DNA of 55,564 nt from Armatimonadota bacterium (GCA_038215455.1 JBBQQW010000001.1:1-55564), one strand, 5' to 3'; shown: positions 22,785 to 48,710, numbered from the stretch's first letter. Notes: generated by a model from the sequence alone, not told the origin. Numbers and translations: made by a program.

Positions 22785-23894
22785 ATGCGTACAATTCTCT
22801 ATGTAAGTGCCTCAGGGGCGATAAGTGGTGCAGAGCGGAGCCTGCTGACAATGCTGGATGCCCTGGACCAGGCGGAGTACACCCCGGTGGTGGCGGCTCC
22901 TGCCGGTGATTTGCTCTCCGAGGTGCGCGAGCGTGGCATCCGTACCCTCTATGTTCCACTGGCACCGTTGATGCGCCCTCGCACATTACGTGCAGGCTTG
23001 GAGATAGTGCACACCGTGCGGGTAGCGCGCAATGCGATGGACGGGCTGCTGGCAGAGATCAAACCCGATATTGTCCACGCCAACACTACCTCGGCAATTG
23101 CCTACACCACGCGTGCGAGGTGCCCGGTAATTTGGCAGGTACGTGATCTCTCGCCGATAGGCCAGTACGGGCGTCTGCTCTACCAGCGTGCCACCCGCGT
23201 GGCCGTCATCTCCTCGGCAGTTCGGGAAGACGTGATGGGCTATGCTTTCGATGATGGCGAGAAAATTCGGCTACTGCCGCCAGCAGTAGATACCAGCAAG
23301 TTTTTCCCCCGTGATGACACCACAGAAATACGCGCCAAATATGGTTTGCCGATAGATGTCCCACTCATTGGCCTGGTGGCACAGTTTGTCCCCTGGAAGC
23401 GCCACGACCTGTTTCTCGACGCCCTGGAGCAAATGCAGGATGAAAAATGGCATGCCGTGCTCTGCGGCGCAGACTTCGGCCATCGGCCGGATTATGTGAA
23501 TCACCTGCAGGCAAGGATTGCAATATCACCCATCGCGAACAGGATCACCTGGCTACCGTGGCAGGTGGATTCTGCACCACTATTGTCAGCATTAGACGTG
23601 TTGGCACTTACGTCGAAGCGTGAACCATTTGGCCGGGCGCTGCTGGAGGCGATGTCCTGTGGTACGGCAGTGGTGGCCGTCGATGAAGGCGGCGTGCGCG
23701 ACTTTATCACCCCAGGAAAGACCGGGATACTCGTTTCCGCTGAAGTAGACGAATTGGTAGGCGCTTTCAAGGATTTGCTGGCCCATGCTAATAAACGTAG
23801 CGAGTTGGGAACTGCTGCACGCGCGTCAGTTACCGCTAATTTTAATCTGGCTAACCAGCGTGTATTGCTTAACGATCTCTATCGTGAACTGTAA
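22785..23894 (+). CDS. glycosyltransferase family 4 (GT-B fold)
   Basis: MRTILYVSASGAISGAERSLL opening and the C-terminal EPFGRALLEAMSCGTAVVAVDEGGVRDFI (E-x7-E type motif). ATG 22785 chosen over the track start at 22752. Confidence 0.8.
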   Translation: MRTILYVSASGAISGAERSLLTMLDALDQAEYTPVVAAPAGDLLSEVRERGIRTLYVPLAPLMRPRTLRAGLEIVHTVRVARNAMDGLLAEIKPDIVHANTTSAIAYTTRARCPVIWQVRDLSPIGQYGRLLYQRATRVAVISSAVREDVMGYAFDDGEKIRLLPPAVDTSKFFPRDDTTEIRAKYGLPIDVPLIGLVAQFVPWKRHDLFLDALEQMQDEKWHAVLCGADFGHRPDYVNHLQARIAISPIANRITWLPWQVDSAPLLSALDVLALTSKREPFGRALLEAMSCGTAVVAVDEGGVRDFITPGKTGILVSAEVDELVGAFKDLLAHANKRSELGTAARASVTANFNLANQRVLLNDLYREL

Positions 23895-23922
23895 ATTTGT
23901 CCGAGAGGAAGCTGAATTGTAT

Positions 23923-25914
23923 ATGAATAAGAATATTGATGAACGCCTGCTCATTGGTGCCAGCTGGTATCCGGAGATGTGGCCGGAAGTGGAATGGTCA
24001 CAAGATATAGCGCGGATGAAAGAACTGGGGTTCAATATTGTCCGCCTTTTCGAATTTGCCTGGCATCGTTTTGAACCGGTGCAAGGTGAGTATAATTTCA
24101 CCTGGGCGGTGCATATCCTTGATCTTTGCCATGCGGCGAACATCGCCGTGATGGTGGGGACGCCCACTGCGGCACCTCCGGCGTGGCTCACCGAGAAATA
24201 TCCTGAGGTGCTGCAGACCCATGCGGACGGTAAACGTGCTACCCATGGTAGGCGCAAGCATTACTCGGTCTATAGCACCGTCTACCGGGAGAAGTGCGCG
24301 GATATCGTACGTGCGATGGTGAAAGCATTCGGTAATCACCCGGCGATACATTCCTGGCAGATAGATAACGAGATGGGTGGGGCGGATTACGGCATTGAGG
24401 CACAGCGCGGCTTCCATACCTGGCTAGCAAGGAAATATGGCACGATAGAGAACCTTAATGGTGCATGGGGGCTGGAGTTCTGGAGTCAGGCGTACTCCGA
24501 TTTTCGCCAAATTCCCATGCCTATAGCGAGTGTAGGTTCCACCGAGATACCGGAGCGGCACCACCCTTCACTTATCATGGCTATATCTCGTTACAACAAT
24601 GACGCCTGGACGGATTTTATCCGCAACCAGTGCCATATCATTCGTGAATCATCAGAGAAACCGATTACCAGCAACATGACTCCCGGCTTCGGGATGAACT
24701 GGTACCAGCATAATGATGCTCTGGACAGGGTGGGGCATAGCCTGTACCGCGACGTCAATCATTACCACTGGAACACCATGTACTTTGATCGGATGCGCGC
24801 GGAGAAACCAGCACCTTATTGGCTGCTGGAGACGGCACCCTCGTGGTCAGCCGGTGGGAAGATCTGGAACATCCATCACGATGCCCGGGGCATCCACGCA
24901 TTCACCTGGCTGGCGACACTACTCGGGGGCAGTATGACGGTATACTGGCAGTGGCGCGAGCACTGGGCCGGGCAGGAGATGCAGCACGGCACACTGGTGA
25001 CGGCTACAGGCAAGTGGCGGCCCAATAAAGATATCATGACAAAGCTGGCAAGTGAGTACGAGGCGCACGGCGAGTGGCTGCTGGCACACCCGCCACTCCC
25101 CGCGCAGGTGGCGTTGCTGCAGAGTAACGAGGCCGCCTGGGCATTCAGCATTGACCCGATTGATGATGATATGCGTTATGACACCCGCTGGCGCGATGAT
25201 TATCACATCCCACTGGTGCAGCACCATATCTGGCGTGATGTCATTAATGAAGAGCATGACTTCAGCCAGTACAAAGTGCTGATCATTCCCCTGATGCCAA
25301 TATTGAAGAAGTCGACGCGTGCCCGCTTGCGCCAATGGGTGGCTGAGGGTGGGCGCTTGCTGTTGGGGCCTTTGACGGGATACCGCACCGAGGAATTCAC
25401 CGCCTTCACCCGGCATGAATTCGGCGGGCTGGAGGAGCTGATCGGCGCGATTAGTGCGTTGCGCTTCCCGGCACACTGGCAGGAAGACATCATCACGGTG
25501 GGATTAACTGACGGTACCAGCACACGTACCCGAGCCTGGTGTGAAGCTTATGAACCAGTAGAAGGTAGCGCAATTGCGTATTACCATGGTGGCTATGGCG
25601 AGGGTTTGCCGGCGATAATGGAGAACAATTACGGCAAAGGAAAAGTCATCACTCTAGGCTGCATGGTAGATGAAACAACCTACATCTCGCTGGTAAAGCG
25701 TTTGTTGGCTGAGGTCAGTATTTCATCAATCGCGGAAGGCTCCAGTGATGTAGTCGTGGTTCCGCGCGAAGAGGGATATGGAATTGTGAACCTGGTGGAA
25801 GAAGAGCGTACGGTGACATTACCCTGCGAAGGTATCAATTTATTTTCCGGGAAGGTTGTCGGCCCTGAAGTGTCCCTGGAGCCGTTGGAAACTATGCTGA
25901 TAAAAATTGCATGA
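23923..25914 (+). CDS. GH42 family beta-galactosidase
   Basis: IGASWYPEMWPEVEWSQDIARMKELGFNIVRLFEFAWHRFEPVQGEYNF is the GH42 opening; WQIDNE carries the catalytic acid/base. The trimerisation and C-terminal domain lengths are consistent. ATG 23923 chosen; the track extension to 23785 overlaps the GT4 gene. Confidence 0.85.
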   Translation: MNKNIDERLLIGASWYPEMWPEVEWSQDIARMKELGFNIVRLFEFAWHRFEPVQGEYNFTWAVHILDLCHAANIAVMVGTPTAAPPAWLTEKYPEVLQTHADGKRATHGRRKHYSVYSTVYREKCADIVRAMVKAFGNHPAIHSWQIDNEMGGADYGIEAQRGFHTWLARKYGTIENLNGAWGLEFWSQAYSDFRQIPMPIASVGSTEIPERHHPSLIMAISRYNNDAWTDFIRNQCHIIRESSEKPITSNMTPGFGMNWYQHNDALDRVGHSLYRDVNHYHWNTMYFDRMRAEKPAPYWLLETAPSWSAGGKIWNIHHDARGIHAFTWLATLLGGSMTVYWQWREHWAGQEMQHGTLVTATGKWRPNKDIMTKLASEYEAHGEWLLAHPPLPAQVALLQSNEAAWAFSIDPIDDDMRYDTRWRDDYHIPLVQHHIWRDVINEEHDFSQYKVLIIPLMPILKKSTRARLRQWVAEGGRLLLGPLTGYRTEEFTAFTRHEFGGLEELIGAISALRFPAHWQEDIITVGLTDGTSTRTRAWCEAYEPVEGSAIAYYHGGYGEGLPAIMENNYGKGKVITLGCMVDETTYISLVKRLLAEVSISSIAEGSSDVVVVPREEGYGIVNLVEEERTVTLPCEGINLFSGKVVGPEVSLEPLETMLIKIA

Positions 25915-25999
25915 TAATCCGTCAAATAGCGAATCGAATCGTCGGATGGCGTGTCATATCATATACGACGCAGGACTATTAACCTAAGGAGAATGAACT

Positions 26000-28360
26000 A
26001 TGAGAGCACTATACTTGCTGCTAATTACACTATTGTTGGCGACGATCGTCATGGCAGTACCACCGACTGATAATGCGGTCGAGAGTAACTACAGTGGTGT
26101 GGAAGGATACCCGCAATGGACAAATGCAGTAAACTGGGCAAATGTCATTGATATGTCCACCTTCGCCAAGGGGAAAACGAATTTCGAGAAATTCGAGAAT
26201 GCGCGCGATGAAGTAGCGGTGAAGGGTGGGGGCGTACTCTACTACCCCGCCGGTATCTATGATTTCTCTGAAGGCCCGTTCTCCGGCCCCAATGGACGTG
26301 GCCTGATGCTGCGCTCCGGCGTGGTGATCCGTGGTGCTGCCCCGGTAGGAAAAGTCGACTCGTACAATGGCACTCTCGACCTGCCCACCAAATTCGTCTT
26401 CGGCTTTGACAAGCATGACGATGTCGCGCTGGATACCGGCACACGGGCGCGCTTCCTGCTCCGTGGTGGCATGAAAGCAGGATCCTTTAACGATGACCTG
26501 GTCGTAAGCATTGCAACAGCCGGGAATAAGATCGGCACCGAAGCAATAGGCTTCATGGCTAATAACCCGGAGTTAAAGCTGACCGGAACTGCTGAAACGA
26601 AAGAGATGCTTGCAGAGAAGAATGCGGATGGCGTTGCAGTACCTGTTACGGTTATTGAAGTAAAACTACAACTGCCCAAAGGCGCGAATAACCTGGAAGC
26701 GAATGTTACCTGTACCATTACTCTTAAAAACACTGCGGATGGGTACGCTGGTGACTATACAGGTAAACTAGATGGGAAAGATATCAAGGGAACAGCTGAG
26801 GGTAAGATCAGCGCCATCAAGGCAGAGACCCCGAAAGACTGGAATATCATCGGCCTGTGCCCGGAAAAAGATGGACGAATTAAGGACGTGAATAACGTCG
26901 GCATCGTCAATGTCAGCCTGGAAGGCGCGACGGTGTACTTCGGCCCAGACGTAAACTGGGGCGCGACCTGGCGCACTGCCGGATCATGGAAAAGCAACTA
27001 CATCAAAGACAGTTGGGCAGATCGAGTCCCCGACGGCACCCACCCGACTGATGCCTTCAATGGCGGCGGTAAGGAGCTGATAGGCTCGGGAACCGGCAGG
27101 CTGGTGGTCGGCTGCTACTTCAAGGATGCTGCGGTGATGAATAACAGCATGACCTGCGGGGTTGCTGGTTTCAGTGCCTCACCAGAACATGCCAAGGGAT
27201 TCGGCGTTGATGGCTTCTATATGGCGAAGTTCCCCGGACGCGTCTCCGTATATGGGAAAAACATACTGGTTGCCGCCAATGTACTCTCTAAATCAGAAGG
27301 TCGTAATTTTGTCTACGCACAGACCACTACCCGCAATGAATCGCGCAAAGGTACCTTCGCATATTTAGGCCTGCGCAAGAGTCGTGTACTCTTTGATTAC
27401 AACAAAACCTGCGGCATTGATATCAATAAAGAGATGCTCGGGCTGACAAAGGCAGAGGCCACCAGTGAAGGCTCTGCCGGATTCTTCGCCGAGAACGTAG
27501 TCGTCCGCGATAACTACGTCTACAATAACGGGCATAAGGGATTCAATATCTCCGGTAAATGGCTGACGATTCAGCATAACCGCAACCAGCGTGATTTCCT
27601 GGATGCCGGTAAGGACAGCTACGGCATCTACGGCTGGCGCTTGACGCTGGATGGCTTCACAGAAGCAAACGGCGGTGGCTCGGGGACTATCTCGGACAAT
27701 CTGTCCCGCGCCTTTGACCTCGGCGGGCAGAACGTCTGGATCGATAAGAACTACTACATCAATACCGGCTCCAACCCCGGCAATGACGGCGAAGGAATCC
27801 TTTGCCAGGCACACGGTGGCACCAATATGCTCTCCTGGGCGATGACGCGCAACGAGCATGAGAAGGGCCGTGGGCAGAATAGCTATATGGGTGGCTGGGA
27901 TGTCGATATCAAAGGCTTGCTTGCGGCCTGGAACAAAGACCCGTCGGGCGCGGTCGGCGAGACGAACGTGAGCAAACGTGCGATCATTGATTGTGCGGTG
28001 GTGGAAAATATCGAACGCGACCCGAAGAGCTGGAAAAAGCCCGAGATGCTGACCGTAACACCATTAGAATCACCCAAGGCACCGGTAGACGTGAAAGTAG
28101 CAGCCATTGAAGGTGCTGGGAATAAAATTAGCTGGACGGATGCCAGCGACAATGAGATCGGTTTCCGCGTGGATCGCACGCTGGATGGGGGAGCGACCTG
28201 GACACCCATCGCCTATCGCCCGCCACATATCGAGGGGACACCAGAGAACCCGCAGGAGTGGATGGACTACATGGCTCCCGCTGGAAAAGCATCTGCCTAC
28301 CGCGTTGTTGCCTGCGATGGCAAAGATAGCGATGCCGGTGCCAGTGCGCTGGTTAAATAA
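26000..28360 (+). CDS. secreted pectate-lyase-3/beta-helix protein with C-terminal FN3-like domain
   Basis: Signal peptide MRALYLLLITLLLATIVMA. FENARDEVAVKGGGVLYYPAGIYDF is a Pectate_lyase_3-type opening. Later beta-helix rungs appear (NVVVRDNYVYNNGHKGFNISG). The C-terminal part PVDVKVAAIEGAGNKISWTDASDNEIGFRVDRTLDGGATWTPIA is FN3-like. Confidence 0.6.
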   Translation: MRALYLLLITLLLATIVMAVPPTDNAVESNYSGVEGYPQWTNAVNWANVIDMSTFAKGKTNFEKFENARDEVAVKGGGVLYYPAGIYDFSEGPFSGPNGRGLMLRSGVVIRGAAPVGKVDSYNGTLDLPTKFVFGFDKHDDVALDTGTRARFLLRGGMKAGSFNDDLVVSIATAGNKIGTEAIGFMANNPELKLTGTAETKEMLAEKNADGVAVPVTVIEVKLQLPKGANNLEANVTCTITLKNTADGYAGDYTGKLDGKDIKGTAEGKISAIKAETPKDWNIIGLCPEKDGRIKDVNNVGIVNVSLEGATVYFGPDVNWGATWRTAGSWKSNYIKDSWADRVPDGTHPTDAFNGGGKELIGSGTGRLVVGCYFKDAAVMNNSMTCGVAGFSASPEHAKGFGVDGFYMAKFPGRVSVYGKNILVAANVLSKSEGRNFVYAQTTTRNESRKGTFAYLGLRKSRVLFDYNKTCGIDINKEMLGLTKAEATSEGSAGFFAENVVVRDNYVYNNGHKGFNISGKWLTIQHNRNQRDFLDAGKDSYGIYGWRLTLDGFTEANGGGSGTISDNLSRAFDLGGQNVWIDKNYYINTGSNPGNDGEGILCQAHGGTNMLSWAMTRNEHEKGRGQNSYMGGWDVDIKGLLAAWNKDPSGAVGETNVSKRAIIDCAVVENIERDPKSWKKPEMLTVTPLESPKAPVDVKVAAIEGAGNKISWTDASDNEIGFRVDRTLDGGATWTPIAYRPPHIEGTPENPQEWMDYMAPAGKASAYRVVACDGKDSDAGASALVK

Positions 28361-28435: not shown

Positions 28436-28503
28436 TCGTATACTTATAGTAATTCACTCGGTGATTCGATTTCACCGGGCAATATTTTTGGAGGGGATTC
28501 ACA

Positions 28504-30252
28504 ATGAATAGATTTCTGCTGTTTTGTATGCTGGTGTTGATATCCATCAGCACCATGGTCACCGCCTTTGCGGCAGGCGAGGGTGGCACTATCGGTCGCC
28601 TGGGTGATGCCGGTGCCAACATCCGCCTGGCGCAAGAGTGGATGAAAATCGACGCGGGCCAGGACTCCTACACCGTTGAAGTTACTTACAAGTTCGTCAA
28701 CGAGACGAACGTGGAAACGCTGGTGAAGATGGCCTACCCGGAGAAAATTCGGATTGATGGTGACAAAAAGACGGAAGGCTTCAGCAATTTCGAGATGTCG
28801 ATCGGCGAATTGCCGGTGAAGGCAGTTCGCACTGACGTAAGCAAGGACAAAGCGGAGAAGGGCTATACGTCGAAATGCTGGGTCAAGAACGTGAACTTCC
28901 TCGGTAAGCAGACCCGCATGGTTGCGGTGAAGTATACGAGCAAATATGGCAGCAAGGATGGCCAGAATATGCTCGATTATCATTTCAGCGACAGTGGCTG
29001 GGCTGGTAACGTTGCAAGCAGTGAGCTTCTAGCGACGGTGAGTGCCCCAGGAGCATCAATTGTAAGCCCGGGACTGGAGATGAAACATGTCGAAAACAGG
29101 CTCTATAAAAAATGGACTGATTGGAAACCCAAGTTTGATCTGGCTATGACTGTTGTTCCGACATCGGCAGATGCGTTAATGGTAGTTGATGATGTAAAAA
29201 CGGACAGCTATTTGATCGTGAATGCCGGAAAGTCTGAAACGCATATTGCTCCGGCAGCAATGCAAAAAGCAGGCGTTGTCTATACTTCACTGGATAACTT
29301 CTCTGCACGCGCAATCAAATTCGCACAAAGTGAAAAGAATCCACCAGCAGGAAAAGTAACGATGGATTGGGCGACAAAGACCAATGCTGTTACTTTGAAT
29401 ATCTGGGGAACAACGTATGTATTCACCCCGGATAGTGATGTGGCGAAAGTTGACGCCGTTGATAGCAAAATGGATGGTAAAGCGCTGCTAATACCAGACC
29501 CGCAGAAGAAAGGCGAATCGCTGATGTATGTGCCTTTGTCTGCACTCAATAAACAGCTGGACGGGGCATATGAATATAAGAAAGATGCTAACACGGTAAA
29601 GTATTCGTTTAAAGCACACACGCCGGCAGTGACAGTTCCTGAAGTACCGCTAGTAAAACCGGTTGAAGTACCAGTGGTAACTCCAACAGAAGTACCGCCG
29701 GTAAAACCCATCGAAGTACCGGTAGTTGCCCCCGTAGATGTACCGCCAGTTATTCCAGTCGAGGTTCCCAAACCGCCGAAGGATGATCTCGCCGTTACGA
29801 ATCAGGTAACAATCAACACCGCAAAAGGTGATATCGTAATTGATCTGTACGGCAATGGAGCACCCAATACGGTGGCTAACTTTGTTAAGCTTGTCGACCT
29901 GGGCTTTTATGACGGGCTGACATTTCATCGGGTTGAGACAATGAATGGCTTTCAAATCATCCAGGGTGGCGACCCTAAAGGTGATGGTACGGGTGAGTCT
30001 GCTGATAGGGTGAAGCTGGAGATAAACCCGAAATTGAAACACTGGGAAGGTGCTATAGCAATGGCACGCTCAGCCGAACCAGATAGTGCCTCTTGTCAGT
30101 TCTATATCTGTAACTGCGCGATACCGCAGCTGGACGGCCTATATGCGGTATTCGGTAGAGTGTCGGCAGGTATGGATGTCGCCAAGAAAATCACCGCTGG
30201 TGACAAAATGATCAAAGTATCAATAGTGCCGCCTGTTGCTAAAGACAAATAG
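28504..30252 (+). CDS. secreted multidomain protein: DUF4424-like N-domain + copper-amine-oxidase-N-like stalk domain + Pro-rich linker + cyclophilin-type peptidyl-prolyl isomerase
   Basis: Signal peptide ...MVTAFA|AG. The N-domain is paralogous to the next two genes. The stalk-like segment is VTMDWATKTNAVTL...GESLMYVPLSALNKQLDGAYEYKKDANTVKYSF. The cyclophilin core is FHRVE..GFQIIQGGDPKGDGTGE...GAIAMAR......SCQFYI......LDGLYAVFGRV..GMDV. Confidence 0.7.
   Translation: MNRFLLFCMLVLISISTMVTAFAAGEGGTIGRLGDAGANIRLAQEWMKIDAGQDSYTVEVTYKFVNETNVETLVKMAYPEKIRIDGDKKTEGFSNFEMSIGELPVKAVRTDVSKDKAEKGYTSKCWVKNVNFLGKQTRMVAVKYTSKYGSKDGQNMLDYHFSDSGWAGNVASSELLATVSAPGASIVSPGLEMKHVENRLYKKWTDWKPKFDLAMTVVPTSADALMVVDDVKTDSYLIVNAGKSETHIAPAAMQKAGVVYTSLDNFSARAIKFAQSEKNPPAGKVTMDWATKTNAVTLNIWGTTYVFTPDSDVAKVDAVDSKMDGKALLIPDPQKKGESLMYVPLSALNKQLDGAYEYKKDANTVKYSFKAHTPAVTVPEVPLVKPVEVPVVTPTEVPPVKPIEVPVVAPVDVPPVIPVEVPKPPKDDLAVTNQVTINTAKGDIVIDLYGNGAPNTVANFVKLVDLGFYDGLTFHRVETMNGFQIIQGGDPKGDGTGESADRVKLEINPKLKHWEGAIAMARSAEPDSASCQFYICNCAIPQLDGLYAVFGRVSAGMDVAKKITAGDKMIKVSIVPPVAKDK
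29641..29784 (+). repeat. six tandem 24-nt (8-aa) units encoding an EVPxVxPx Pro-rich linker
   Basis: GA(A/T/G)GT(A/T)CC restarts exactly every 24 nt, at 29641, 29665, 29689, 29713, 29737 and 29761. The units encode EVPLVKPV, EVPVVTPT, EVPPVKPI, EVPVVAPV, DVPPVIPV and EVPKPPKD. Confidence 0.9.
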
Positions 30253-30284
30253 TTGAGAAGGTGCGGGATGTAAAGGAGTTTGCT

Positions 30285-31448
30285 ATGAGGAACCTATCAC
30301 TATTATTCATTGCACTGCTGGCTATAGCAAGTACGGCATGGGCGAATGATACAAGCGTAGTTGGCATCGGTGGTACTGTGAATCGCATGGGCGGTGAGGA
30401 TACCAACATTCGCATGGAGCAGGAGTGGGTGAATATTGACGTTAACGAGAAGAACTACACCGTAACTGCCACTTTTAAGTTCGTTAATGATTCTGACGCC
30501 GCGCAAACCGTCGAGATGGGCTTCCCGGAAAATGGTGGTGGTGATGGAGGAAGTGGAGATACGCCCGGATTCATTTCCTTCACCAGTAAAGTCGATAATG
30601 TCGCAGTATTGGTGGAACGAAAACTCCCGCGCTCGAAAAACTTGGACGGTGAAGGGTATCAAGCTTACTGGGTGAAGAAAGTAACCTTTCAACCTCGGCA
30701 GACTCATTGGGTGCAAGTAGAATATCTATCTAACAAAGGATTGGTATCTGCGTATCCACGTAATTTTATCATTTACAATTTCACTGGTGGCAATTGGAAA
30801 GGACTGGTGTCTTCTTCTGAGTTACTGGTCACTTTCCATAATCCAGGCATGTGGCTGGTGATGAGTCATGGTGTGGATTTTAAACAGAAGGAAAACCGAC
30901 TCTATCGTAAATGGGAGAACTGGCAAGCTGAATACGTGTTTAATGTTGATTTTGCACCGACAAAGCCGGACATACTAAATCGAACTTCCCGAAGTTACAG
31001 CGAAGATAAGCAATATAATTATGTTGTGAAGAATCCTGGAAATAGCGGACACGTCGAACAGAGGCCCGATGGATTATTACTCAATAACGTGGCATTTGTG
31101 GAACTAGACGATCTGGTTAGGGAATTAGGGGAAAAAAAAGATGACCAACCAATAAAGAAGGTAGTACAGGATTGGGATGGGAAAACGAATATTGTGACGC
31201 TGCGTGTTGACGATATTGAACTTACCTTTCAACCCGATAGCGACATCATGAAGAGAAAATCTCCGATAAATGTTAATGAGGTTCTGTCTGTTAAGTATAT
31301 AAAGCTACTGGGCAAAGTATTCCTGCTTGATGATGGATACAAAAAAGGGGAAAAGCTGATGTATGTACCAGTTGCGGATGTGGTGAAAGCACTGAATGGG
31401 AAATTTGAAGAGCATCTGGAAAACCTGACAATCGATTATTCTTTTTAA
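30285..31448 (+). CDS. secreted DUF4424-like + stalk-domain protein (paralogue 2)
   Basis: ATG 30285 (AAAGGAG 7 nt upstream) gives the signal peptide MRNLSLLFIALLAIASTAWA|ND. It shares NDTSVVGIGGTV..M......NIRMEQEWVNIDV....YTVTATFKFVND......VEMGFPE, ENRLYRKWENW and GEKLMYVPVADVVKAL with its neighbours. Confidence 0.65.
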   Translation: MRNLSLLFIALLAIASTAWANDTSVVGIGGTVNRMGGEDTNIRMEQEWVNIDVNEKNYTVTATFKFVNDSDAAQTVEMGFPENGGGDGGSGDTPGFISFTSKVDNVAVLVERKLPRSKNLDGEGYQAYWVKKVTFQPRQTHWVQVEYLSNKGLVSAYPRNFIIYNFTGGNWKGLVSSSELLVTFHNPGMWLVMSHGVDFKQKENRLYRKWENWQAEYVFNVDFAPTKPDILNRTSRSYSEDKQYNYVVKNPGNSGHVEQRPDGLLLNNVAFVELDDLVRELGEKKDDQPIKKVVQDWDGKTNIVTLRVDDIELTFQPDSDIMKRKSPINVNEVLSVKYIKLLGKVFLLDDGYKKGEKLMYVPVADVVKALNGKFEEHLENLTIDYSF

Positions 31449-31479
31449 TGTTGGCGATGAATGAATAAACGGAGGGAAG

Positions 31480-32718
31480 ATGATGAGATATATAGTGGTT
31501 ATCGCTGCTGCCGTGCTTTTTGCTCTATCAGCTACAGCGGAATTTGAAGTCGTAAAAATCGTCAATGGTACAGTAGATTATGCGAAGAGCGATGCTGTGA
31601 GATGCAATCATATCTGGATTGATGTCAACATAAAACCGACTGGGTATGAATGCGTGGAGACTATTGAGTTAGAGAATATTTCCGATGATTCCGCAACAAT
31701 CAAAGTGGGGAATAATCTTGGATATATTTCCAGCGATTACCTATATGTTGAGAGTGCATATTTAGTAGATAATGCAAAAGTTAAGGCCATTCCCATGCCT
31801 TACGGGGAATTACCTTATGTTCAAAATATGGACATCATAGATCTGAAGTTTACTCCCAAGGGGATAAAGTACCTGAAATCTGAATACACCATAAAAAACA
31901 ATACGATTCCCGGATATCCGATACATGATCTATATTTTTCAATGAATACTCGCGGATGGCAGAATGATTACGTGAATCTCGGGGGAATGCCTGACTATAT
32001 GAAACCTGCATCAGTGCCGATGCTACCGGCCTGTGAGGCTCTGGTGACAATAAATCTCCCTGGGACTACAATGATACAAACGACAATATTGGAAATGAAA
32101 CATGTTGAAAACCGACTCTATTATAAGTGGCCACAGTCAGACAAAAACTTGAATTTTTACCTGGATATTACCTATCAACCAGTAATCGCCGGGGAATTGC
32201 GGACAACTCTGATAAACATGAGAGAAGAAAAGCAAAGAATTTCCAACCCCAGTAATTTTCCAGTAGTGCGTGTACATAACATTGAAATAATCGAGAACCC
32301 CGGCAAAACGGTCCCGTCCTATGCGCCGGAGACTCTTCTCCGTGATGACGTAGTCTATACGAAGATTGAAGATCTGGCGGACAATATGCTGGCGTTGAAT
32401 CGCAAAGAGAAGGTAGCGTTGAAAATTAATGAGGCTATGACAAGTGCGGTATTGATGGCCGGTAATGATGTCTTTATCTTCAGTACGGGCAGCAAGGTTT
32501 CAAACAAAGATGGCGTTGAAATCACGCAGGCAGGTGCGCCGTTCTTACTTGACGATCCGTTCAATGTGGGCGAAAAAGTACTTTACGTCCCACTTTCTTC
32601 ATTGGTAGATTTTTATAAAGGGAAGCTGACGCTGACAAAAGAACGGGCGGAGGTGAGTTATTCATTACCGGACTGGGAACCCAAAGAAAAAGTGAAACTG
32701 AATGAGAAGATGCACTAG
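31480..32718 (+). CDS. secreted DUF4424-like + stalk-domain protein (paralogue 3, most divergent)
   Basis: Signal peptide MMRYIVVIAAAVLFALSATA|EF. It keeps MKHVENRLYYKW (P1: MKHVENRLYKKW) and the C-terminal GEKVLYVPLSSLVDFYKG...AEVSYSL stalk-type motif. Confidence 0.6.
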   Translation: MMRYIVVIAAAVLFALSATAEFEVVKIVNGTVDYAKSDAVRCNHIWIDVNIKPTGYECVETIELENISDDSATIKVGNNLGYISSDYLYVESAYLVDNAKVKAIPMPYGELPYVQNMDIIDLKFTPKGIKYLKSEYTIKNNTIPGYPIHDLYFSMNTRGWQNDYVNLGGMPDYMKPASVPMLPACEALVTINLPGTTMIQTTILEMKHVENRLYYKWPQSDKNLNFYLDITYQPVIAGELRTTLINMREEKQRISNPSNFPVVRVHNIEIIENPGKTVPSYAPETLLRDDVVYTKIEDLADNMLALNRKEKVALKINEAMTSAVLMAGNDVFIFSTGSKVSNKDGVEITQAGAPFLLDDPFNVGEKVLYVPLSSLVDFYKGKLTLTKERAEVSYSLPDWEPKEKVKLNEKMH

Positions 32719-32724
32719 AAATAT

Positions 32725-32750
32725 CTCCCTCGGTGTTGCCACCGAGGGAG
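32725..32750. terminator. 11-bp hairpin between convergent genes (possible bidirectional terminator)
   Basis: CTCCCTCGGTG-ttgc-CACCGAGGGAG lies between the stop of paralogue 3 (32718) and the stop of the acyl-CoA synthetase (32759). There is no strong U-tract on either side. Confidence 0.5.
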
Positions 32751-32758
32751 GGGTTCAT

Positions 32759-35079: not shown

Positions 35080-38000
35080 TTACGCCAGACGAAGGAGCAT
35101 GCGCAGCAACACCATCGGTGGGATATATGCCAGCAGGTATATCCACAGCCACCCGGGATCATAGTCCGGCTTGCCAAAGCGTGCAAACGGTGTCCAGAAC
35201 ATCTGCTTTGTCTTTGCTTTGTCGTAGACTATTTTTACTGATTTCACTGGAGAAGATGCTCCTCCAGTGATCTCGGTAAGTGCAGGTGGATATTTATCAC
35301 CGAGAACAGCGCTGATTTTTATCGGTGTTTTCTCCTTGGTTGTCAGTGTAAGATCAAATTTACCAGCGGTGGCGGTATCCATGTCTGCAGGTCGGATGCG
35401 CCAGGATATTGTCTGTGGTGTAACCCCCGCCTTCAGGTAACCCTGCAAGTCGGCCAGCATCTCTGCGCGTGCCTTTTTGGCAGCTGCCTGCACGTCCCAG
35501 GGCAGGTTGCCCATCTCGGATGGTGCCGCCCAGCGTGCCTGCAATTTCTCCAGCGTCTCTTTTATCTGCGGGATCGACTGCTCGCGTGGGGTGGTCTCAT
35601 CCAGCCGCACTGTGCCAGGAATGTCGAGAGACACCGGCTCATGCCATGTAGCATCTACTGTGGCAAGCACCATGAAGGACGTCCCGGGTGCAGGACTCCA
35701 TGCAGCCGGGTCAAGACGTTCTGGCAACCAGGAGAAGGTCATCACCATCGGGCCGAGCACCAGCGCCAGCGGGACGAATGCCGCCATGGATATCTGCCCC
35801 TGTACCGGGCGCGCCAGCTGCAGCAGTATCTTGTTCCGCGGGGAGCCGGTCGGGAAGGTCGCGGCCTCTTTGGTGAGGAGCGCAGCCCGGCGTTTCGCCT
35901 CCCAGATGCGCTTGTTATTCGTCAGCACGCTCTGCCCCACCATGGTGATGATGGCAAAGGCACAGGCAATGATGGCAACGGTTATCGGCTTGCCGAATAT
36001 GTTAACCAGCGGCCAGAGCAGAGAATCCAGTATTGCATAGCTGGGATGCTTCAAATATTGTGGCGGGAGTAGGAATACCCCGGCCAGGTAGATGGCCCAG
36101 AAAGCGATGCAGAGATTCATCAGCATCCCGGCGCGGCGGTCGGCATCACCGGGTACCGGCGGTACCAGCTCGCGTGCCACATGGGTGTCATTCTCGTCAA
36201 CGGCGGCAACATCGCAGATTTCCTGCGCGCCGCGGTAGAGTTTGCCGTGTCGGCCGTCTACCGTGATCGTCTCGCCTTCCTGCAGCAGTTCCGTCGCTCC
36301 GGCCAGCACAACTGCCGGGATGCCCATTTCGCGTGCAACCACCGCACCGTGCGAGAGCGTGCCCCCACGCTCCAGCACCAGGCCGGCGGCGTTGACGAAT
36401 AACGGAGTCCAGGAGGGATCGGTGGACGGGCAGACGAGGATGTAGCCGTTCTCCATCGCGCCCGCTTTCTCCGGCGAGAGAATAATACGCGCTGGCCCGG
36501 AAGCCGTTCCGCTGGAGATAGGGAACACCGTGATGCAATCGCCCGAAGCATGGATTATGGGTTCGCCGATACGCTCCAGTTCCGCTTCATCAATGAAGTT
36601 CGGGAGTTGGATGCGGTCTTCCGCGGCGCGCAGCATCTTGCGTTTATCTATAACCGGAAGTGGCGGATATCCAGTGAGTACTGCATGAGTGAACTCTTCA
36701 CGCGTGAGTAAGAAGACATCATCGCCGATGCCCAGGCGTCGCCCGGCTTCCAATGCCACATCGCGCAGCAGGTCGTACCCGAGCATCAGATAGTCTTTGC
36801 CGTCCTCACGGAAGTTGATATAGCGCCCAGCACGTTGCAGAATATCTTCCAGCCGGTCGGCATCCTTCGGGCTAAGCTTGCTTTGCAGTTCGTCGATACG
36901 TTTCACAGCTCGTGCGTGACGTTCCTCGCTGATAAGCTGCGGTGACCTGCCACCCGCCATGCCCTGTGCCATTTTGCGCGCTTCTTCCGGGCGTTCACGC
37001 CAGCGTGGTGAGGAGAGATCGAACTCTGCTGGGCCACGGTAGCCGTGATCTTTGATCCATTTTTCCAGCGTGCGCGTCCCGGTTGCCACTTCGTACAGTT
37101 CTGCCCCGGAGCGCAATGTGGAGTCCATTTTTGAAGAGACGACAATCTCATTAGAAAGTTCATACGGATCATCATCCCAGAAGTGTTCATTGAGAAAGCT
37201 GTGCAATTCTGCCAGAATCATGCCATCAATAAGACTGGGAAGCATAGAACTGGGGCCAAAGTCGTCCAGCACCTGCGTCTCGCGCTCCTGCAGTGCTGTG
37301 AGCAGTTCTTCATCGGATAAGATGGTGAGATCGCGATGCTTCTCTGCTTTGCACCAGGCAGCAAATGCCGGGATTATTTCGTTGGACAACCGTTTGTCGA
37401 AGTCCTCTGACATCTCCGCCAGCATACGATTGGCTGCTGCCAGCTTCCCGTTTACATTCATGCCCCCCATCATTCCGCCGATGGGGACGGTGGGAGGGGC
37501 TTGCCCGGCTTCGGGATTATTGCGGATCTCCTCTGGATCATAGGCGAAGGGGAAATCCTGGAAAAACATCTCCGGTGCGACCTTCAAGTCCATGTAGGGG
37601 CGGCCGGCGATGAGCGTGAGAAAACCTTCCGCGCAGGCGATAGGAGCAGGTACAAAACCTGCCTGCCGGTACATATTCCCGTAGCCACCTTCACCGGACA
37701 TGAAACGGCGGATAAAGCTCCAGGTGAGCGGGGTGGGGTGGGGCAGGGTTTCGGCGATGTTATGCGTCACCCACGGGCCACGTTCGTTCTCCAGTGCCGC
37801 TTTCAATTCTGTGCGTGTATTATGCAGGCACTCCTCATAGGCAGCCGCGTCACCCAGTGTGGTGATATTACGCGTCTGCAGGATGAAAAGCTCATCGTTG
37901 TGGAAGGCCCATTCGATATCCTGCGGGACGCGGAAATGCGTCGCCGCATGCCTGCCCAGTTCCCAGAGCTTCAGCACTTGCGCAGCATTAAGAGAACGCT

Positions 38001-38685
38001 TGTTGCGCATGTTGGCCGGGGTGGCACATTCCTTATGCGAGCCAGGCGCTATCCAGGTCGCTTTGTCGGAGATCTTCGCCTCAAGTACGCGGCCATCAAT
38101 GCCGGAGATACGCAACACGTCTGGTTGCACGTTGCCCGAGACAACCGATTCGCCCAGCCCCCAGCTCGCTTCGATGAGCATCTCATCGAGTGCGCCGGTG
38201 CGTGCATTGGCCGTGAAGAGCACGCCCGCTACATCGGCGGGGACGAGTATCTGTACTACTACCGCCATTGCCACCACATCAATATCAATGCCATGCTCAT
38301 GCAGGTAGCTACGCGTGCGTGGGCTGTCCAGGCTGCTCCAGCATTTCTGCACCGCATTCAGCACATCATCGACACCATTGATGTCCAGGAAGGTCTCATA
38401 TTGCCCCGCCATACTGGCATCGGCCATATCTTCCGCAGTGGCGCTGGAACGCACCGCCACCGTTGGCGAGCCGATCTGCTGGTAGCAGGTGCGGATTGCA
38501 TCGGCCAATTCGGCGGGCATGCCACCTTTGGCATGAGCGTAACGATAGGCATCGGTAGTGATGACAAAGCCACCGGGCGCGGGGAATCCTGCGCGCAACA
38601 GACGCCCGAGGTTGATTGCTTTTCCGCCGACGCGTGCAGCATCGCGCGCATCAGCGAGGTTTTGGATAAAATCGTTAGTATTCAT
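35080..38685 (-). CDS. PEP-utilising phosphotransferase (PpsA / rifampin-phosphotransferase-like: ATP-grasp + central helical region + His swivel domain) fused to a C-terminal polytopic membrane module
   Basis: The PPDK_N-type ATP-grasp covers residues 1 to about 280 (GGKAINLGRLLRAGFPAPGGFVITT, VAVRSSATAEDM, PQDIEWA). The mobile domain covers about 715-820, with ERGGTLSHGAVVAREMGIPAVV (His779, codon 36351-36349). There is no PEP/pyruvate TIM barrel. Residues about 852-1201 contain four hydrophobic helices (MLMNLCIAFWAIYLAGVFLL; ITVAIIACAFAIITMVGQSVL; ISMAAFVPLALVLGPMVMTFSWL; WLWIYLLAYIPPMVLLRMLL) and a loop of about 190 aa between helices 3 and 4. Confidence 0.75.
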   Translation of the reverse strand: MNTNDFIQNLADARDAARVGGKAINLGRLLRAGFPAPGGFVITTDAYRYAHAKGGMPAELADAIRTCYQQIGSPTVAVRSSATAEDMADASMAGQYETFLDINGVDDVLNAVQKCWSSLDSPRTRSYLHEHGIDIDVVAMAVVVQILVPADVAGVLFTANARTGALDEMLIEASWGLGESVVSGNVQPDVLRISGIDGRVLEAKISDKATWIAPGSHKECATPANMRNKRSLNAAQVLKLWELGRHAATHFRVPQDIEWAFHNDELFILQTRNITTLGDAAAYEECLHNTRTELKAALENERGPWVTHNIAETLPHPTPLTWSFIRRFMSGEGGYGNMYRQAGFVPAPIACAEGFLTLIAGRPYMDLKVAPEMFFQDFPFAYDPEEIRNNPEAGQAPPTVPIGGMMGGMNVNGKLAAANRMLAEMSEDFDKRLSNEIIPAFAAWCKAEKHRDLTILSDEELLTALQERETQVLDDFGPSSMLPSLIDGMILAELHSFLNEHFWDDDPYELSNEIVVSSKMDSTLRSGAELYEVATGTRTLEKWIKDHGYRGPAEFDLSSPRWRERPEEARKMAQGMAGGRSPQLISEERHARAVKRIDELQSKLSPKDADRLEDILQRAGRYINFREDGKDYLMLGYDLLRDVALEAGRRLGIGDDVFLLTREEFTHAVLTGYPPLPVIDKRKMLRAAEDRIQLPNFIDEAELERIGEPIIHASGDCITVFPISSGTASGPARIILSPEKAGAMENGYILVCPSTDPSWTPLFVNAAGLVLERGGTLSHGAVVAREMGIPAVVLAGATELLQEGETITVDGRHGKLYRGAQEICDVAAVDENDTHVARELVPPVPGDADRRAGMLMNLCIAFWAIYLAGVFLLPPQYLKHPSYAILDSLLWPLVNIFGKPITVAIIACAFAIITMVGQSVLTNNKRIWEAKRRAALLTKEAATFPTGSPRNKILLQLARPVQGQISMAAFVPLALVLGPMVMTFSWLPERLDPAAWSPAPGTSFMVLATVDATWHEPVSLDIPGTVRLDETTPREQSIPQIKETLEKLQARWAAPSEMGNLPWDVQAAAKKARAEMLADLQGYLKAGVTPQTISWRIRPADMDTATAGKFDLTLTTKEKTPIKISAVLGDKYPPALTEITGGASSPVKSVKIVYDKAKTKQMFWTPFARFGKPDYDPGWLWIYLLAYIPPMVLLRMLLRLA

Positions 38686-40370
38686 TCAGCTGACGTCCCA
38701 ACCAGGCAGATCAGGCCCCCCGTCTCACTTCCCACGAATACTCTACCGCCCGCCACTGTGGGCGAGGAGAAGGACATACCTTGTCCAGGAGCATCTTCTG
38801 AATTCAATGCAATAGTCTCCAGTTTCTTACCCTCGCCATCCAGTACCACCAGGTAGCCTCCGGAAGAAACTGCGTAGATGGTCTTACCGGTAAACGCCGC
38901 TGCGGCCATCACTGGTTCGCTCTCATGGGCGGTAGTTGATTTGATAATGCTGCCATCAGCGATATTCATCAATGTTATCTTACCGGTGCGTCCGGTGCAT
39001 ACGGCTACATTACCCACCACCGCCACCGCACCAAGTACCGCATCGGGGAAGTCTTTAGACCAGACGACTTTGCCGTCTGCGCGATTGATAGCTAAAACCT
39101 TGCCGGCAGGATTCTTCTTATCGGCGTAGACAAAGTCACCGTTGCCAACACCGGTTATTATTATGTCACCGACGACGGTGATTGCTCCGGTAGCCGGATA
39201 TGTGGTATCCGCGGACCAGAGGATATTACCAGCGCCTTCACCTTCCAGCTTAATCGCCACCACTTTATTTCCATTGAAACCACTGCCGATGTAGACAATA
39301 CCATCGACGATGGCGGGAGAGCTTTCCGGGTCGTTAACCGGATGTCGCCACAGTACGGTACCATCGCTAATTTGCACGGCGATAACTTCACCGGGGGCGG
39401 AAATAGGTTTATGGTCTGGACCTTCAATAGCCCCGCACCCCACAACCGCGATGTCTCCCCAGATAGCCGGGGAGCTTTCAATATGCAGTGTGGAGGGTGC
39501 CTGCCAGCGTATTGCCCCCGTGACTGCATCCATACAAACTAATGAGCAATTCATATCAGGATGTAATCCCAGGCCAATGAGTAGATTCGCCCCGTCAGCT
39601 GTAACTGCCGGAGAAGAGAATATCCCCGGGAAAGCTTTCCCATCATTACCTGCACTTGTTTTCCATATCAATGTACCACTTTCTGCATCCAGGCAGATGA
39701 CGGAGCCGTAGTAGGCACCGCCTTTTAACACAGAGACGGAACTATATAGCTTATTGCCGACGAGCAATGGTGATGATAATGACGTGCTGTTATCTTCGGA
39801 ATAACTCCAGAATTTCGCTAACCCACGCGGGCCGGGGCTACCATCCCATGCTGTACGAGCAACACCCATGCCTAAGATGTATGGGCTGGCTGCGCCTGTA
39901 GCAGCACCATTTCCATCGGTTATGACATTGCCAGTCGTTGGATCAATAATTGTGCCATTGAAACTGGTAAGTCCGCCGGGATTCAATAATGAGGTGGTTG
40001 CACTGCCAGTGCCGGGCATACCGGCTATTGGGCCTTTGCCCCCCGTTTTGTCGCGACGCAGGATATCCAGGGCGACGGCGGCCCAATCAGTTTTACTGGT
40101 GGGTTCCCCCGCCACTGTGGTTCCGGTAGTTGCGGCGACTGCCTGGTGTGGCCCGAATGCCCAACTTCCGCCAAACCATAATCCTGCCCCGATGGCAATA
40201 ACCAGGAATGGCATCCAAGGTTTGCGTTTGAAAGCTGCCACTAATTCCTTGGGCTTCATGATAATCGCTGCTACGCTAGCGAAGCCTGCAATTATGGCCG
40301 GGAAGAGGGCAGCACCGGCGTTGACAAAGATCGGCACCACGGCCGGAGAAGTCTCTGGGATAGGCAGCAT
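38682..40370 (-). CDS. membrane-anchored PQQ-like (BamB-type) beta-propeller repeat protein
   Basis: Two N-terminal TM helices (AGAALFPAIIAGFASVAAII; WMPFLVIAIGAGLWFGGSWAF). These are followed by repeated blades of the type G.VY.GS..G.l.A.d..tG...W (VICLDAESGTLIWK, GKVLAINRADGKVVWS, GKITLMNIADGSIIKS, GRVFVGSETGGLICL). The stop overlaps the next gene's ATG (ATGA, 38682-38685). Confidence 0.75.
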   Translation of the reverse strand: MLPIPETSPAVVPIFVNAGAALFPAIIAGFASVAAIIMKPKELVAAFKRKPWMPFLVIAIGAGLWFGGSWAFGPHQAVAATTGTTVAGEPTSKTDWAAVALDILRRDKTGGKGPIAGMPGTGSATTSLLNPGGLTSFNGTIIDPTTGNVITDGNGAATGAASPYILGMGVARTAWDGSPGPRGLAKFWSYSEDNSTSLSSPLLVGNKLYSSVSVLKGGAYYGSVICLDAESGTLIWKTSAGNDGKAFPGIFSSPAVTADGANLLIGLGLHPDMNCSLVCMDAVTGAIRWQAPSTLHIESSPAIWGDIAVVGCGAIEGPDHKPISAPGEVIAVQISDGTVLWRHPVNDPESSPAIVDGIVYIGSGFNGNKVVAIKLEGEGAGNILWSADTTYPATGAITVVGDIIITGVGNGDFVYADKKNPAGKVLAINRADGKVVWSKDFPDAVLGAVAVVGNVAVCTGRTGKITLMNIADGSIIKSTTAHESEPVMAAAAFTGKTIYAVSSGGYLVVLDGEGKKLETIALNSEDAPGQGMSFSSPTVAGGRVFVGSETGGLICLVGTSAE

Positions 40371-48449: not shown

Positions 48450-48710
48450 ATGGATGTATTGAGAGTATCGGCAAAGTCAAACCCGAATTCGGTAGCTGGC
48501 GCGCTGGCCGGCGTCATTCGCGAGAAGGGCGCAGCAGAATTGCAGACTATCGGGGCAGGGGCATTGAATCAAGCAGTGAAGGCGCTGGCGATTGCACGCG
48601 GTTTTATGGCTCCATCAGGCGTTGACTTGATTTGTCGCCCGGCTTTTACCGACCTTCAGGTGGACGGAGCAGATCGTACCGCGATTCGGCTGATGATTGA
48701 GCCTAAATAG
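48450..48710 (+). CDS. spoVS: stage V sporulation protein S family protein
   Basis: The 86-aa protein MDVLRVSAKSNPNSVAGALAGVIREKG.AELQ.IGAGA.NQAVKA.AIARGF.AP.G.DL...P.F is near-canonical SpoVS. Confidence 0.9.
   Translation: MDVLRVSAKSNPNSVAGALAGVIREKGAAELQTIGAGALNQAVKALAIARGFMAPSGVDLICRPAFTDLQVDGADRTAIRLMIEPK

Follow-up and report, generated by a model that had tools for sequence, protein, structure and literature searches.

Three tandem genes, here called P1, P2 and P3 (positions 28,504 to 32,718), were analyzed in a 55,564-nt stretch of DNA from an Armatimonadota bacterium (GCA_038215455.1, JBBQQW010000001.1:1-55564), hereafter called the window. Judged from sequence profiles and predicted structures, the body shared by the three products is a DUF4424 beta-sandwich followed by a copper-amine-oxidase-N ("stalk") domain, and the stalk domain therefore occupies the position of YARHG in canonical DUF4424 proteins. 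Four features are new: the combination of DUF4424 and stalk domains, an architecture missing from the 2013 description, the fast-evolving array that encodes it, a membrane-anchored paralogue (paralogue A) found in close relatives, and the fusion of P1 to a cyclophilin. The reading that we tentatively prefer is that P1-P3 are Sec-exported, non-enzymatic envelope proteins of two domains which may bind or scaffold partners and may assemble via their stalk domains; P1 would in addition hold a prolyl isomerase on a tether.

When the three proteins were compared using BLASTP, P1 and P2 shared 35% identity over the whole 370-residue body (E-value of 8e-62), P1 and P3 shared 25% (E-value of 9e-21) and P2 and P3 shared 22% (E-value of 5e-22). 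On these sequence similarities, which are far beyond chance, P1, P2 and P3 are paralogues. P3 is the most divergent of them and lacks the MGFPE and FTGGNW motifs. In all three N-termini a basic n-region is followed by a hydrophobic core (mean Kyte-Doolittle value of 3.2-3.4 over 10 residues) and an AXA-type site, with cleavage predicted between AFA and AG in P1, AWA and ND in P2, and ATA and EF in P3. No later transmembrane-like segment was observed in P1, P2 or P3; signal-peptide and transmembrane calls were made with a rule-based check only. An initial annotation of this DNA had proposed three consecutive genes coding for mutually similar proteins, each with a signal peptide. The open reading frame (ORF) listing (intergenic gaps of 32 nt between P1 and P2 and 31 nt between P2 and P3), the pairwise comparisons (E-values from 8e-62 to 9e-21) and the rule-based check bear this out. 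The same annotation pointed to a conserved ENRLY.KW motif that was retained between P1 and P3 even at the nucleotide level. The motif is real, with 11 of 12 residues identical between P1 and P3 (three of those codons being synonymous) and 30 identical positions in the 36-nt stretches. However, 30/36 is approximately what is expected from the 11 identical residues alone, so the nucleotide-level conservation is trivial and an extra constraint at that level was rejected.

A search with P2 retrieved 23 relatives besides P2, 21 of which were aligned with the three window proteins to give a 24-sequence family alignment. For the N-domain, the DUF4424 likeness suggested at the outset was not significant in the window proteins alone: with PF14415, P2 scored 11.1 bits (E-value of 0.22), below the Pfam gathering cut-off of 27 bits, and P1 and P3 gave no match. 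At the family level, however, 17 of the 24 aligned members matched PF14415 at E<=0.01 and two relatives exceeded the cut-off (L012, 38.2 bits; P0055, 27.7 bits). The DUF4424 type structure is that of lpg2210 from Legionella pneumophila, PDB 4g2a (Coggill et al. 2013, PMC3848476). The family profile matched its sequence (E-value of 7.2e-6), with the motifs F.F.N, M.FP, V...R and Y..tG..W in common. When the AlphaFold2 model of P2 (predicted local distance difference test, pLDDT, 81; predicted template modelling score, pTM, 0.76) was searched using Foldseek, the top PDB match was again 4g2a (E-value of 5e-11 over 246 columns, with a template modelling score of 0.50 normalised to the target). The domain calls were based on family-level and structural evidence because the Pfam scores of the window proteins fall below the cut-offs. 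As judged in this way, the N-domain of P1-P3 is, at the family level, a divergent DUF4424 beta-sandwich; the P2 model has the fold of that family.

The initial annotation had placed the N-domain in no characterised family, and this stands: DUF4424 is itself uncharacterised, with a signal peptide in almost all members and no conserved gene neighbourhood (PMC3848476). Like lpg2210, the window proteins consist of a signal peptide (P1-P3, by the rule-based check), a large beta-sandwich and then a small C-terminal domain, with no function assigned and no conserved neighbourhood. The architectures described for DUF4424 are the domain alone, with a C-terminal YARHG or with CARDB (PMC3848476), and none of them is matched here, where the C-terminal partner is a Cu_amine_oxidN1-like domain instead of YARHG or nothing. 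Further differences from lpg2210 are the scores below the Pfam cut-off, the fast-evolving tandem array and the fusion of one member to a cyclophilin. In addition, the window family is centred on Armatimonadota and Abditibacteriota, whereas the canonical family is centred on Proteobacteria and Fusobacteria. Two more distant N-domain relatives, L009 and L013, from metagenome-assembled genomes (MAGs) of Sericytochromatia and Vulcanimicrobiota, do carry a C-terminal YARHG, as in lpg2210. Because YARHG stands there in these relatives and a stalk domain in this family, the C-terminal position looks like a swappable module, which suggests a role in envelope association.

The next Foldseek matches of the P2 model were M1 aminopeptidase structures (ERAP1, ERAP2, IRAP and APN; E-value of about 1e-5), and a BFVD match was found to a giant-virus protein of the inter-alpha-trypsin-inhibitor (ITIH) family (E-value of 4e-4). 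In the viral structure library, the only matches were phage proteins with a stalk domain and ITIH-like proteins of giant viruses, which are uninformative on function. DUF4424 has been reported to resemble the N-terminal regions of LTA4H and of tricorn-interacting factor F3, and the authors suggested that its concave surface, similar to that of the LTA4H N-domain, might join in substrate recognition (PMC3848476). The Hybrid2 domain of ITIH HC1 was found to be most similar to 4G2A, and the authors called a subdomain within it homologous to Ig-like carbohydrate-binding domains (bioRxiv 10.1101/695700). The likeness of P2 to M1 aminopeptidases, the LTA4H N-domain and ITIH Hybrid2 is a beta-sandwich resemblance at the fold level only (sequence identity of 6-12%); unlike these proteins, the window proteins have neither a zincin catalytic domain nor a vWA domain.

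In line with what the describers of DUF4424 hypothesised, P1-P3 might help a secreted peptidase of several components to recognise its substrates, as accessory subunits. Besides the fold likeness to M1 aminopeptidases and the resemblance to LTA4H and factor F3 N-terminal regions that is reported for DUF4424 (PMC3848476), an M16 peptidase gene is located 6.5 kb upstream of the array, an arrangement that is kept in the related genome L019. However, the M16 protein has no signal peptide and was ruled out as a partner for that reason, and no peptidase gene recurs beside family members (19 loci). We consider this explanation very improbable.

The C-domain was matched with PF07833 in P1 (20.5 bits) and P2 (15.9 bits) but not in P3, all below the cut-off of 24.2 bits. 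Among the aligned family members, 18 of 24 matched at E<=0.01, and P0023 (31.9 bits), the P1 orthologue P0047 (27.9 bits) and P0007 (27.8 bits) were above the cut-off. When the C-domain of P2 was modelled on its own (pLDDT 86.8), it aligned with the E. coli amine oxidase chains 1oac, 1qaf and 6grr over about 100 columns (root-mean-square deviation of 2.6-2.7 A, probability 1.0), although the E-value is only about 0.1 for this small domain and the match table leaves unspecified which part of the 720-residue chains is aligned. At the family level, these profile and model results identify the C-domain as a copper-amine-oxidase-N stalk domain, in agreement with what had been proposed. In Paenibacillus PaSOD, the PF07833 domain was shown experimentally to be a homodimerisation module (PaSOD-1, 8IMD, PMC10432803). 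The window copies belong to the same domain family as the stalks of E. coli amine oxidase (1OAC) and PaSOD, at the family level, and like them are found in exported proteins; unlike them, they lie C-terminal to a DUF4424-like domain and score below the cut-off. Taking both domains together, DUF4424/lpg2210 comes closest among known entities. The Pfam cut-offs of both families are not reached by the window proteins, which nevertheless share the folds and are joined to both families via intermediate sequences.

Only P1 continues into a cyclophilin-type peptidyl-prolyl isomerase (PPIase) domain, as the initial annotation stated. PF00160 matched residues 435-567 with 137.2 bits (E-value of 7.6e-40; cut-off of 21.7 bits), and NCBIfam gave only PpiA/PpiB-like matches. 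The closest PDB chain was 2mvz (E-value of 1e-29). For the residue check we used R55, F60, Q63, F113, L122 and H126, which we take to be the catalytic and substrate-site residues of human CypA. When P1 was compared with 2mvz, 3jb9_d and 9l5r_S, the Arg of FHRV, the Phe of GF, the Gln of QGG, the Phe of QF and the Leu of LDG were all kept. At the position of the His of 2mvz and of the yeast and human enzymes P1 has a Tyr, presumably as in E. coli PpiB. A clade-specific insertion of three residues (ETMNGFQII) lies beside the Arg and Phe. On this residue check, the P1 cyclophilin looks catalytically competent. It is preceded by a Pro/Val-rich linker of about 55 residues, partly encoded by a 24-nt tandem repeat (29640-29726; 3.6 copies, 68% matches). 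The linker length appears polymorphic because it is 32 aa shorter in P0047.

The order DUF4424-stalk-cyclophilin was found at full length only in P1 and P0047, in addition to a cut copy in L021, among the matches listed. Cyclophilins of the same clade are 50-65% identical to that of P1 and occur in other fusions, so that the clade looks like a widely shuffled exported module. P0235, P0250 and P0254 combine stalk, PD40 and cyclophilin domains, and differ from P1 in their N-terminal body; in P0235 and P0250, whose sequences were checked, a Pro/Ala-rich linker precedes the cyclophilin, and the stalk domain is accompanied by a hydrophobic, signal-like segment at the N-terminus. Other members are fused to DsbA-like thioredoxin domains (e.g. 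P0245 from Thermoflexales; also in Anaerolineae), FKBP or parvulin, and P0174 and P0175 are triple tandem cyclophilins. P0247 is also listed among the fusion proteins of this clade outside the window.

When the loci of close relatives were compared, different states of the array were observed. In L019 (GCA_038248345.1), the order is PurL, GFO, M16, PrmC, GT4 and a P1 orthologue, then a convergent acyl-CoA synthetase gene and an HTH-cupin gene, without P2, P3, the GH42 gene or the gene for a 786-aa protein. This orthologue (P0047) has 535 aa, is 55% identical to P1 and has the same architecture. The window shows an L019-like synteny with the GH42 and 786-aa genes inserted ahead of P1-P2-P3. L021 starts with the cyclophilin end of a P1-like gene (cut off by the contig end), followed by A-P2-P3 and the same convergent synthetase gene; identity to the window is 73% for the cyclophilin end (with P1) and 97% for the synthetase. 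L001 contains A-P2-P3 at a different locus, between polA and a major facilitator superfamily (MFS) transporter gene.

Paralogue A, which is absent from the window, is encoded in L021 (555-1922, 455 aa), between the P1-like cyclophilin end and P2, and in L001 (8632-9966, 444 aa); P0003 is one copy of it. It consists of the same body with an Ala/Pro-rich spacer, a C-terminal transmembrane helix and a KRRK or RRRK tail. In a neighbour-joining tree, the P1, A, P2 and P3 groups had 100% bootstrap support each, A and P2 were sisters (95%) and all four formed one clade (72%). The duplications are therefore older than the split of these genomes, and lineage-specific. On this sequence comparison the array is a lineage-specific expansion of variable copy number, with one gene in L019, three in the window and apparently four in L021. 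The three-gene triad that had been described is thus present in the window, but it is no fixed unit: the array varies from one to four genes, and the triad is one of its states.

The variable array bears on the explanation that the body is a mere envelope tether for P1 as an exported housekeeping cyclophilin, with P2 and P3 as duplicated tethers in a separate or redundant structural role. P1 is indeed the syntenic, ancestral resident of the locus and stands alone in L019, and the same module of cyclophilin and linker is found on the other stalk proteins P0235, P0250 and P0254. However, P2 and P3 are intact, constrained (omega of 0.12-0.25; see below) and in the same order in three genomes. In addition, the DUF4424-stalk body is widespread as a stand-alone protein (194 representatives at E<=1e-30), hence it has a function of its own. 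We therefore regard the tether explanation as unlikely.

Substitution rates were compared between the array and its flanks. Between the window and L021, the flanking synthetase had 97% amino acid identity with a nonsynonymous rate (dN) of 0.016 and a synonymous rate (dS) of 0.56. The values were 63% with dN 0.285 and dS 1.1 for P2, 58% with dN 0.326 and a saturated dS for P3, and 73% with dN 0.194 for the P1 cyclophilin domain. Between the window and L019, P1 had a dN of 0.31, compared with 0.035-0.12 for the neighbours PurL, synthetase, GT4 and M16. Thus dN exceeds that of the neighbours 3-9x for P1 and about 18-20x for P2 and P3. The ratio dN/dS (omega) was below 1 throughout (0.09-0.30 overall, 0.63 in the highest 60-codon window). 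The array genes are therefore constrained and functional, with a constraint that is far weaker or more variable than that of the neighbours. Positive selection was rejected, as no 60-codon window had omega > 1, and only fast evolution can be claimed. The higher dS of P2 and P3 was not used as a sign of older alleles because it is confounded by saturation and codon bias.

The fast regions differ between the paralogues when compared with their L021 and L001 orthologues. P2 changes slowly in its N-domain (dN 0.05-0.28) and fast in its stalk region (0.3-0.65). P3 shows the complementary pattern, with a fast N-domain (dN 0.4-0.8; 32-52% identity) and a conserved stalk (0.06-0.18; 73-83%). In the window as well as in L001 and L021, the GC content at third codon positions (GC3) is 0.43-0.52 for the array genes and 0.6-0.8 for the flanking ones. 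The low-GC paralogue genes (GC 0.42-0.47; GC3 0.43-0.50, against 0.6-0.83 in their flanks) extend over 30285-32718 in the window, 8632-12490 in L001 and 555-4383 in L021, in three genomes and at two chromosomal positions. Candidate reasons for a low GC3 despite the old duplications are repeated exchange, low expression and relaxed codon selection.

A periplasmic chaperone-foldase similar to SurA, FkpA or PpiD was considered, in which the sandwich would bind an unfolded client, P1 would isomerise its prolines and P2 and P3 would be holdases without PPIase. The N-domain resembles M1 aminopeptidases and the LTA4H N-domain, a possible substrate recogniser (PMC3848476). The fusion partners of same-clade cyclophilins include DsbA, FKBP and parvulin domains, all foldases, and in L019 the P1 orthologue stands alone in the tight housekeeping row M16, PrmC, GT4, P1. 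A binding domain with a tethered PPIase parallels the known periplasmic foldases: like SurA, FkpA and PpiD, P1 would combine export, a non-catalytic body and a prolyl isomerase domain, by functional analogy only. General chaperones are normally well conserved, however, and the dN values of P1 and of P2 and P3 relative to their neighbours are not of that kind; copy number also varies from one to four among close relatives. Unlike the three foldases, P1 has a cyclophilin and not a parvulin or FKBP as isomerase, and a body that is unrelated in sequence and fold. No homology to the chaperone domains of SurA, FkpA and PpiD was detected in Pfam and NCBIfam scans, where the window proteins gave no parvulin, FKBP, SurA-N or FkpA-N domain at E<=1. 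Moreover, most family members (about 390 aa) have no PPIase, the fusion being confined to P1, P0047 and the L021 end among the matches listed. We judge a dedicated foldase rather unlikely, although less so than a mere tether.

We return to P1-P3 as exported binding or scaffold proteins. The DUF4424-like sandwich, which resembles the N-terminal region of M1 aminopeptidases, would be the module that binds a ligand or partner. The stalk domain, at the position of the putatively peptidoglycan-proximal YARHG, may mediate association of the paralogues with themselves or each other, or attachment to the envelope; it is considered an association module because PF07833 is the homodimerisation module of PaSOD (PMC10432803). 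On its Pro-rich spacer, the P1 cyclophilin would bring prolyl-isomerase activity to the envelope assembly, and in close relatives paralogue A would anchor the set in the cytoplasmic membrane through its C-terminal helix. Given how fast the genes change and how much their copy number varies, the partner that the binding surfaces face may itself be variable and is probably external.

Several points weigh against this reading. Oligomerisation via the stalk is an analogy drawn from a single Firmicute protein, and the window lacks the membrane-anchored paralogue A, so that P1-P3 would have to be anchored in another way, if at all. No neighbour gene recurs in the wider family (19 loci), as is also the case for canonical DUF4424 (PMC3848476). 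The signal peptides (rule-based), the folds, the paralogy, the cyclophilin residues, the variability of the array and the rate differences are observations, whereas oligomerisation via the stalk, the envelope location and what is bound are inferred. With no omega above 1, the fast change could reflect relaxed constraint after duplication and not diversifying selection, and dS is partly saturated and confounded by the difference in codon bias between array and flanks. Finally, a single-copy Abditibacteriales member evolves only about 2x as fast as typical neighbours, and the acceleration, together with the argument for surface exposure, is therefore limited to the expanded array.

A bolder form of the binding/scaffold reading, which we put forward as a speculation of low probability, is that the array encodes an envelope or surface assembly of a kind not recognised before, made of hetero-oligomers of the DUF4424-like sandwiches. 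It would be joined by stalks and anchored by A where present. Its rapidly diversifying binding faces would serve in adhesion, or would act as decoys or receptors when phages or predators are met, and its tethered cyclophilin would fold or remodel proline-rich partners. If true, this would be the first function for DUF4424 proteins and a new class of exported cyclophilin-scaffold complexes. P1, P2, P3, the 786-aa neighbour and paralogue A had no match among the PADLOC defence systems.

Table 1 Features of the P1-P2-P3 array and other genes in the window (aa, amino acids; CDS, coding sequence)
Feature	Position	Strand	Description
GH42 beta-galactosidase gene and 786-aa gene	23785..28360	+	between GT4 and P1
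GC-rich hairpin, then T-run	28457..28479	+	inside the 143-nt gap upstream of P1
P1 CDS	28504..30252	+	582 aa: signal peptide, DUF4424-like domain, stalk domain, Pro-rich linker, cyclophilin
P1 Sec-type signal peptide	28504..28572	+	aa 1-23, predicted cleavage between AFA and AG, rule-based
P1 DUF4424-like beta-sandwich domain	28573..29169	+	~aa 24-222; MAYPE motif and MKHVENRLYKKW strand at 29080-29115
P1 stalk (Cu_amine_oxidN1-like) domain	29206..29619	+	~aa 235-372; PF07833 20.5 bits, residues 285-366
P1 Pro/Val-rich linker	29620..29781	+	~aa 373-426
P1 cyclophilin-type PPIase domain	29782..30228	+	~aa 427-575; PF00160 E 7.6e-40
P2 CDS	30285..31448	+	387 aa: signal peptide aa 1-20, DUF4424-like domain ~aa 21-233, stalk domain ~aa 243-387
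P3 CDS	31480..32718	+	412 aa: signal peptide aa 1-20, divergent N-domain ~aa 21-235, stalk domain ~aa 268-396
12-bp GC-rich hairpin	32724..32751		between convergent P3 and acyl-CoA synthetase genes
1201-aa protein gene	35080..38685	-	PPDK_N ATP-grasp region and PEP-utilizers mobile domain
PQQ/BamB-like beta-propeller gene	38682..40370	-	upstream of the 1201-aa protein gene
SecA gene	10006..13455	+	1149 aa
86-aa ORF	48450..48710	+	SpoVS-like by eye

In the ORF listing of the window, P1, P2 and P3 form a compact array on the plus strand (Table 1). Each start is preceded by a GGAGG-type Shine-Dalgarno site (GGAGGGG at 28490-28496 for P1). For P2 an in-frame GTG is found upstream at 30261, but an AGGAG lies 7 nt ahead of the ATG at 30285. 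The upstream gap with its hairpin and T-run parts the array from the 786-aa gene, and this hairpin may be the terminator of that gene or a structure in the 5' untranslated region. The downstream hairpin looks like a bidirectional terminator closing the array. With this spacing, the ribosome-binding sites and the bounding hairpins, P1-P2-P3 look like one transcription unit.

The genes upstream of the array raise the question of whether P1-P3 are glycan- or nutrient-binding proteins that work with neighbouring secreted glycoside-degrading genes. The GH42 and 786-aa genes are directly upstream on the same strand, and the 786-aa product has a signal-like segment and a weak beta-helix match. In addition, 4g2a was labelled a 'putative nutrient binding protein' by its depositors, and a subdomain of the related ITIH HC1 Hybrid2 domain has been called homologous to Ig-like carbohydrate-binding domains (bioRxiv 10.1101/695700). 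However, the adjacency is not conserved, as no GH42 or 786-aa gene lies beside the L019 P1 orthologue and the L001 set stands between polA and the MFS transporter gene. The hairpin with T-run also separates the 786-aa gene from P1, and no carbohydrate-binding module family was matched in the Pfam scan. The explanation is thus improbable, and the GH42/beta-helix genes were ruled out as a conserved link because neither the syntenic locus in L019 nor L001 has them. Both genes look inserted, since they are absent at the otherwise syntenic L019 locus. The hydrophobic signal-like segment of the 786-aa protein is N-terminal, and its C-terminal region is FN3-like by eye.

When the family profile was searched against 50%-identity cluster representatives, 2,684 were matched at E<=1e-3, 1,174 at 1e-10 and 194 at 1e-30. 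Most members have about 390 aa and share the two-domain layout, while some of 230-250 aa consist of the N-domain only. Occasionally a SnoaL-like, TPR or cyclophilin domain, among others, is added at the C-terminus. In the GTDB species representatives, relatives were found mainly in Armatimonadota and Abditibacteriota, with a few in MAGs of Sericytochromatia/other Cyanobacteriota, Vulcanimicrobiota, Bacteroidota and Ignavibacteria. Outside these arrays, family members are single-copy, except for one tandem pair in L008. All-against-all ORF clustering of the 19 loci gave no conserved neighbour family, save for synteny among related Abditibacteriales contigs, and guilt by association is therefore uninformative. 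A metagenome scan with the P3 profile returned no additional contig.

DUF4424 has had a crystal structure since 2012 and is still without a function, and through the locus it is linked to a sister group of considerable size that carries no annotation. The rare cyclophilin fusion and the fast-evolving, copy-variable array are experimental handles on this orphan family, and the array is a candidate hypervariable envelope locus. The practical value is limited, as the host is uncultured and no phenotype is attached to the P1-P3 genes.

The window itself is ordinary chromosome (FtsK, SecA, PurB, PurQ, PurL, PrmC, IF3 and L20), and no rRNA was found in it. Some other genes were noted (Table 1). The 1201-aa protein has a C-terminal extension of about 380 aa, hydrophobic and membrane-like in look, which is an unusual architecture for an enzyme that utilises phosphoenolpyruvate (PEP); its gene overlaps the upstream PQQ/BamB-like gene by 4 nt. 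The 86-aa ORF lies in a lower-GC stretch adjoining the L20 and IF3 genes. SecA is unusually long, with extra sequence between its DEAD-like and P-loop domains.

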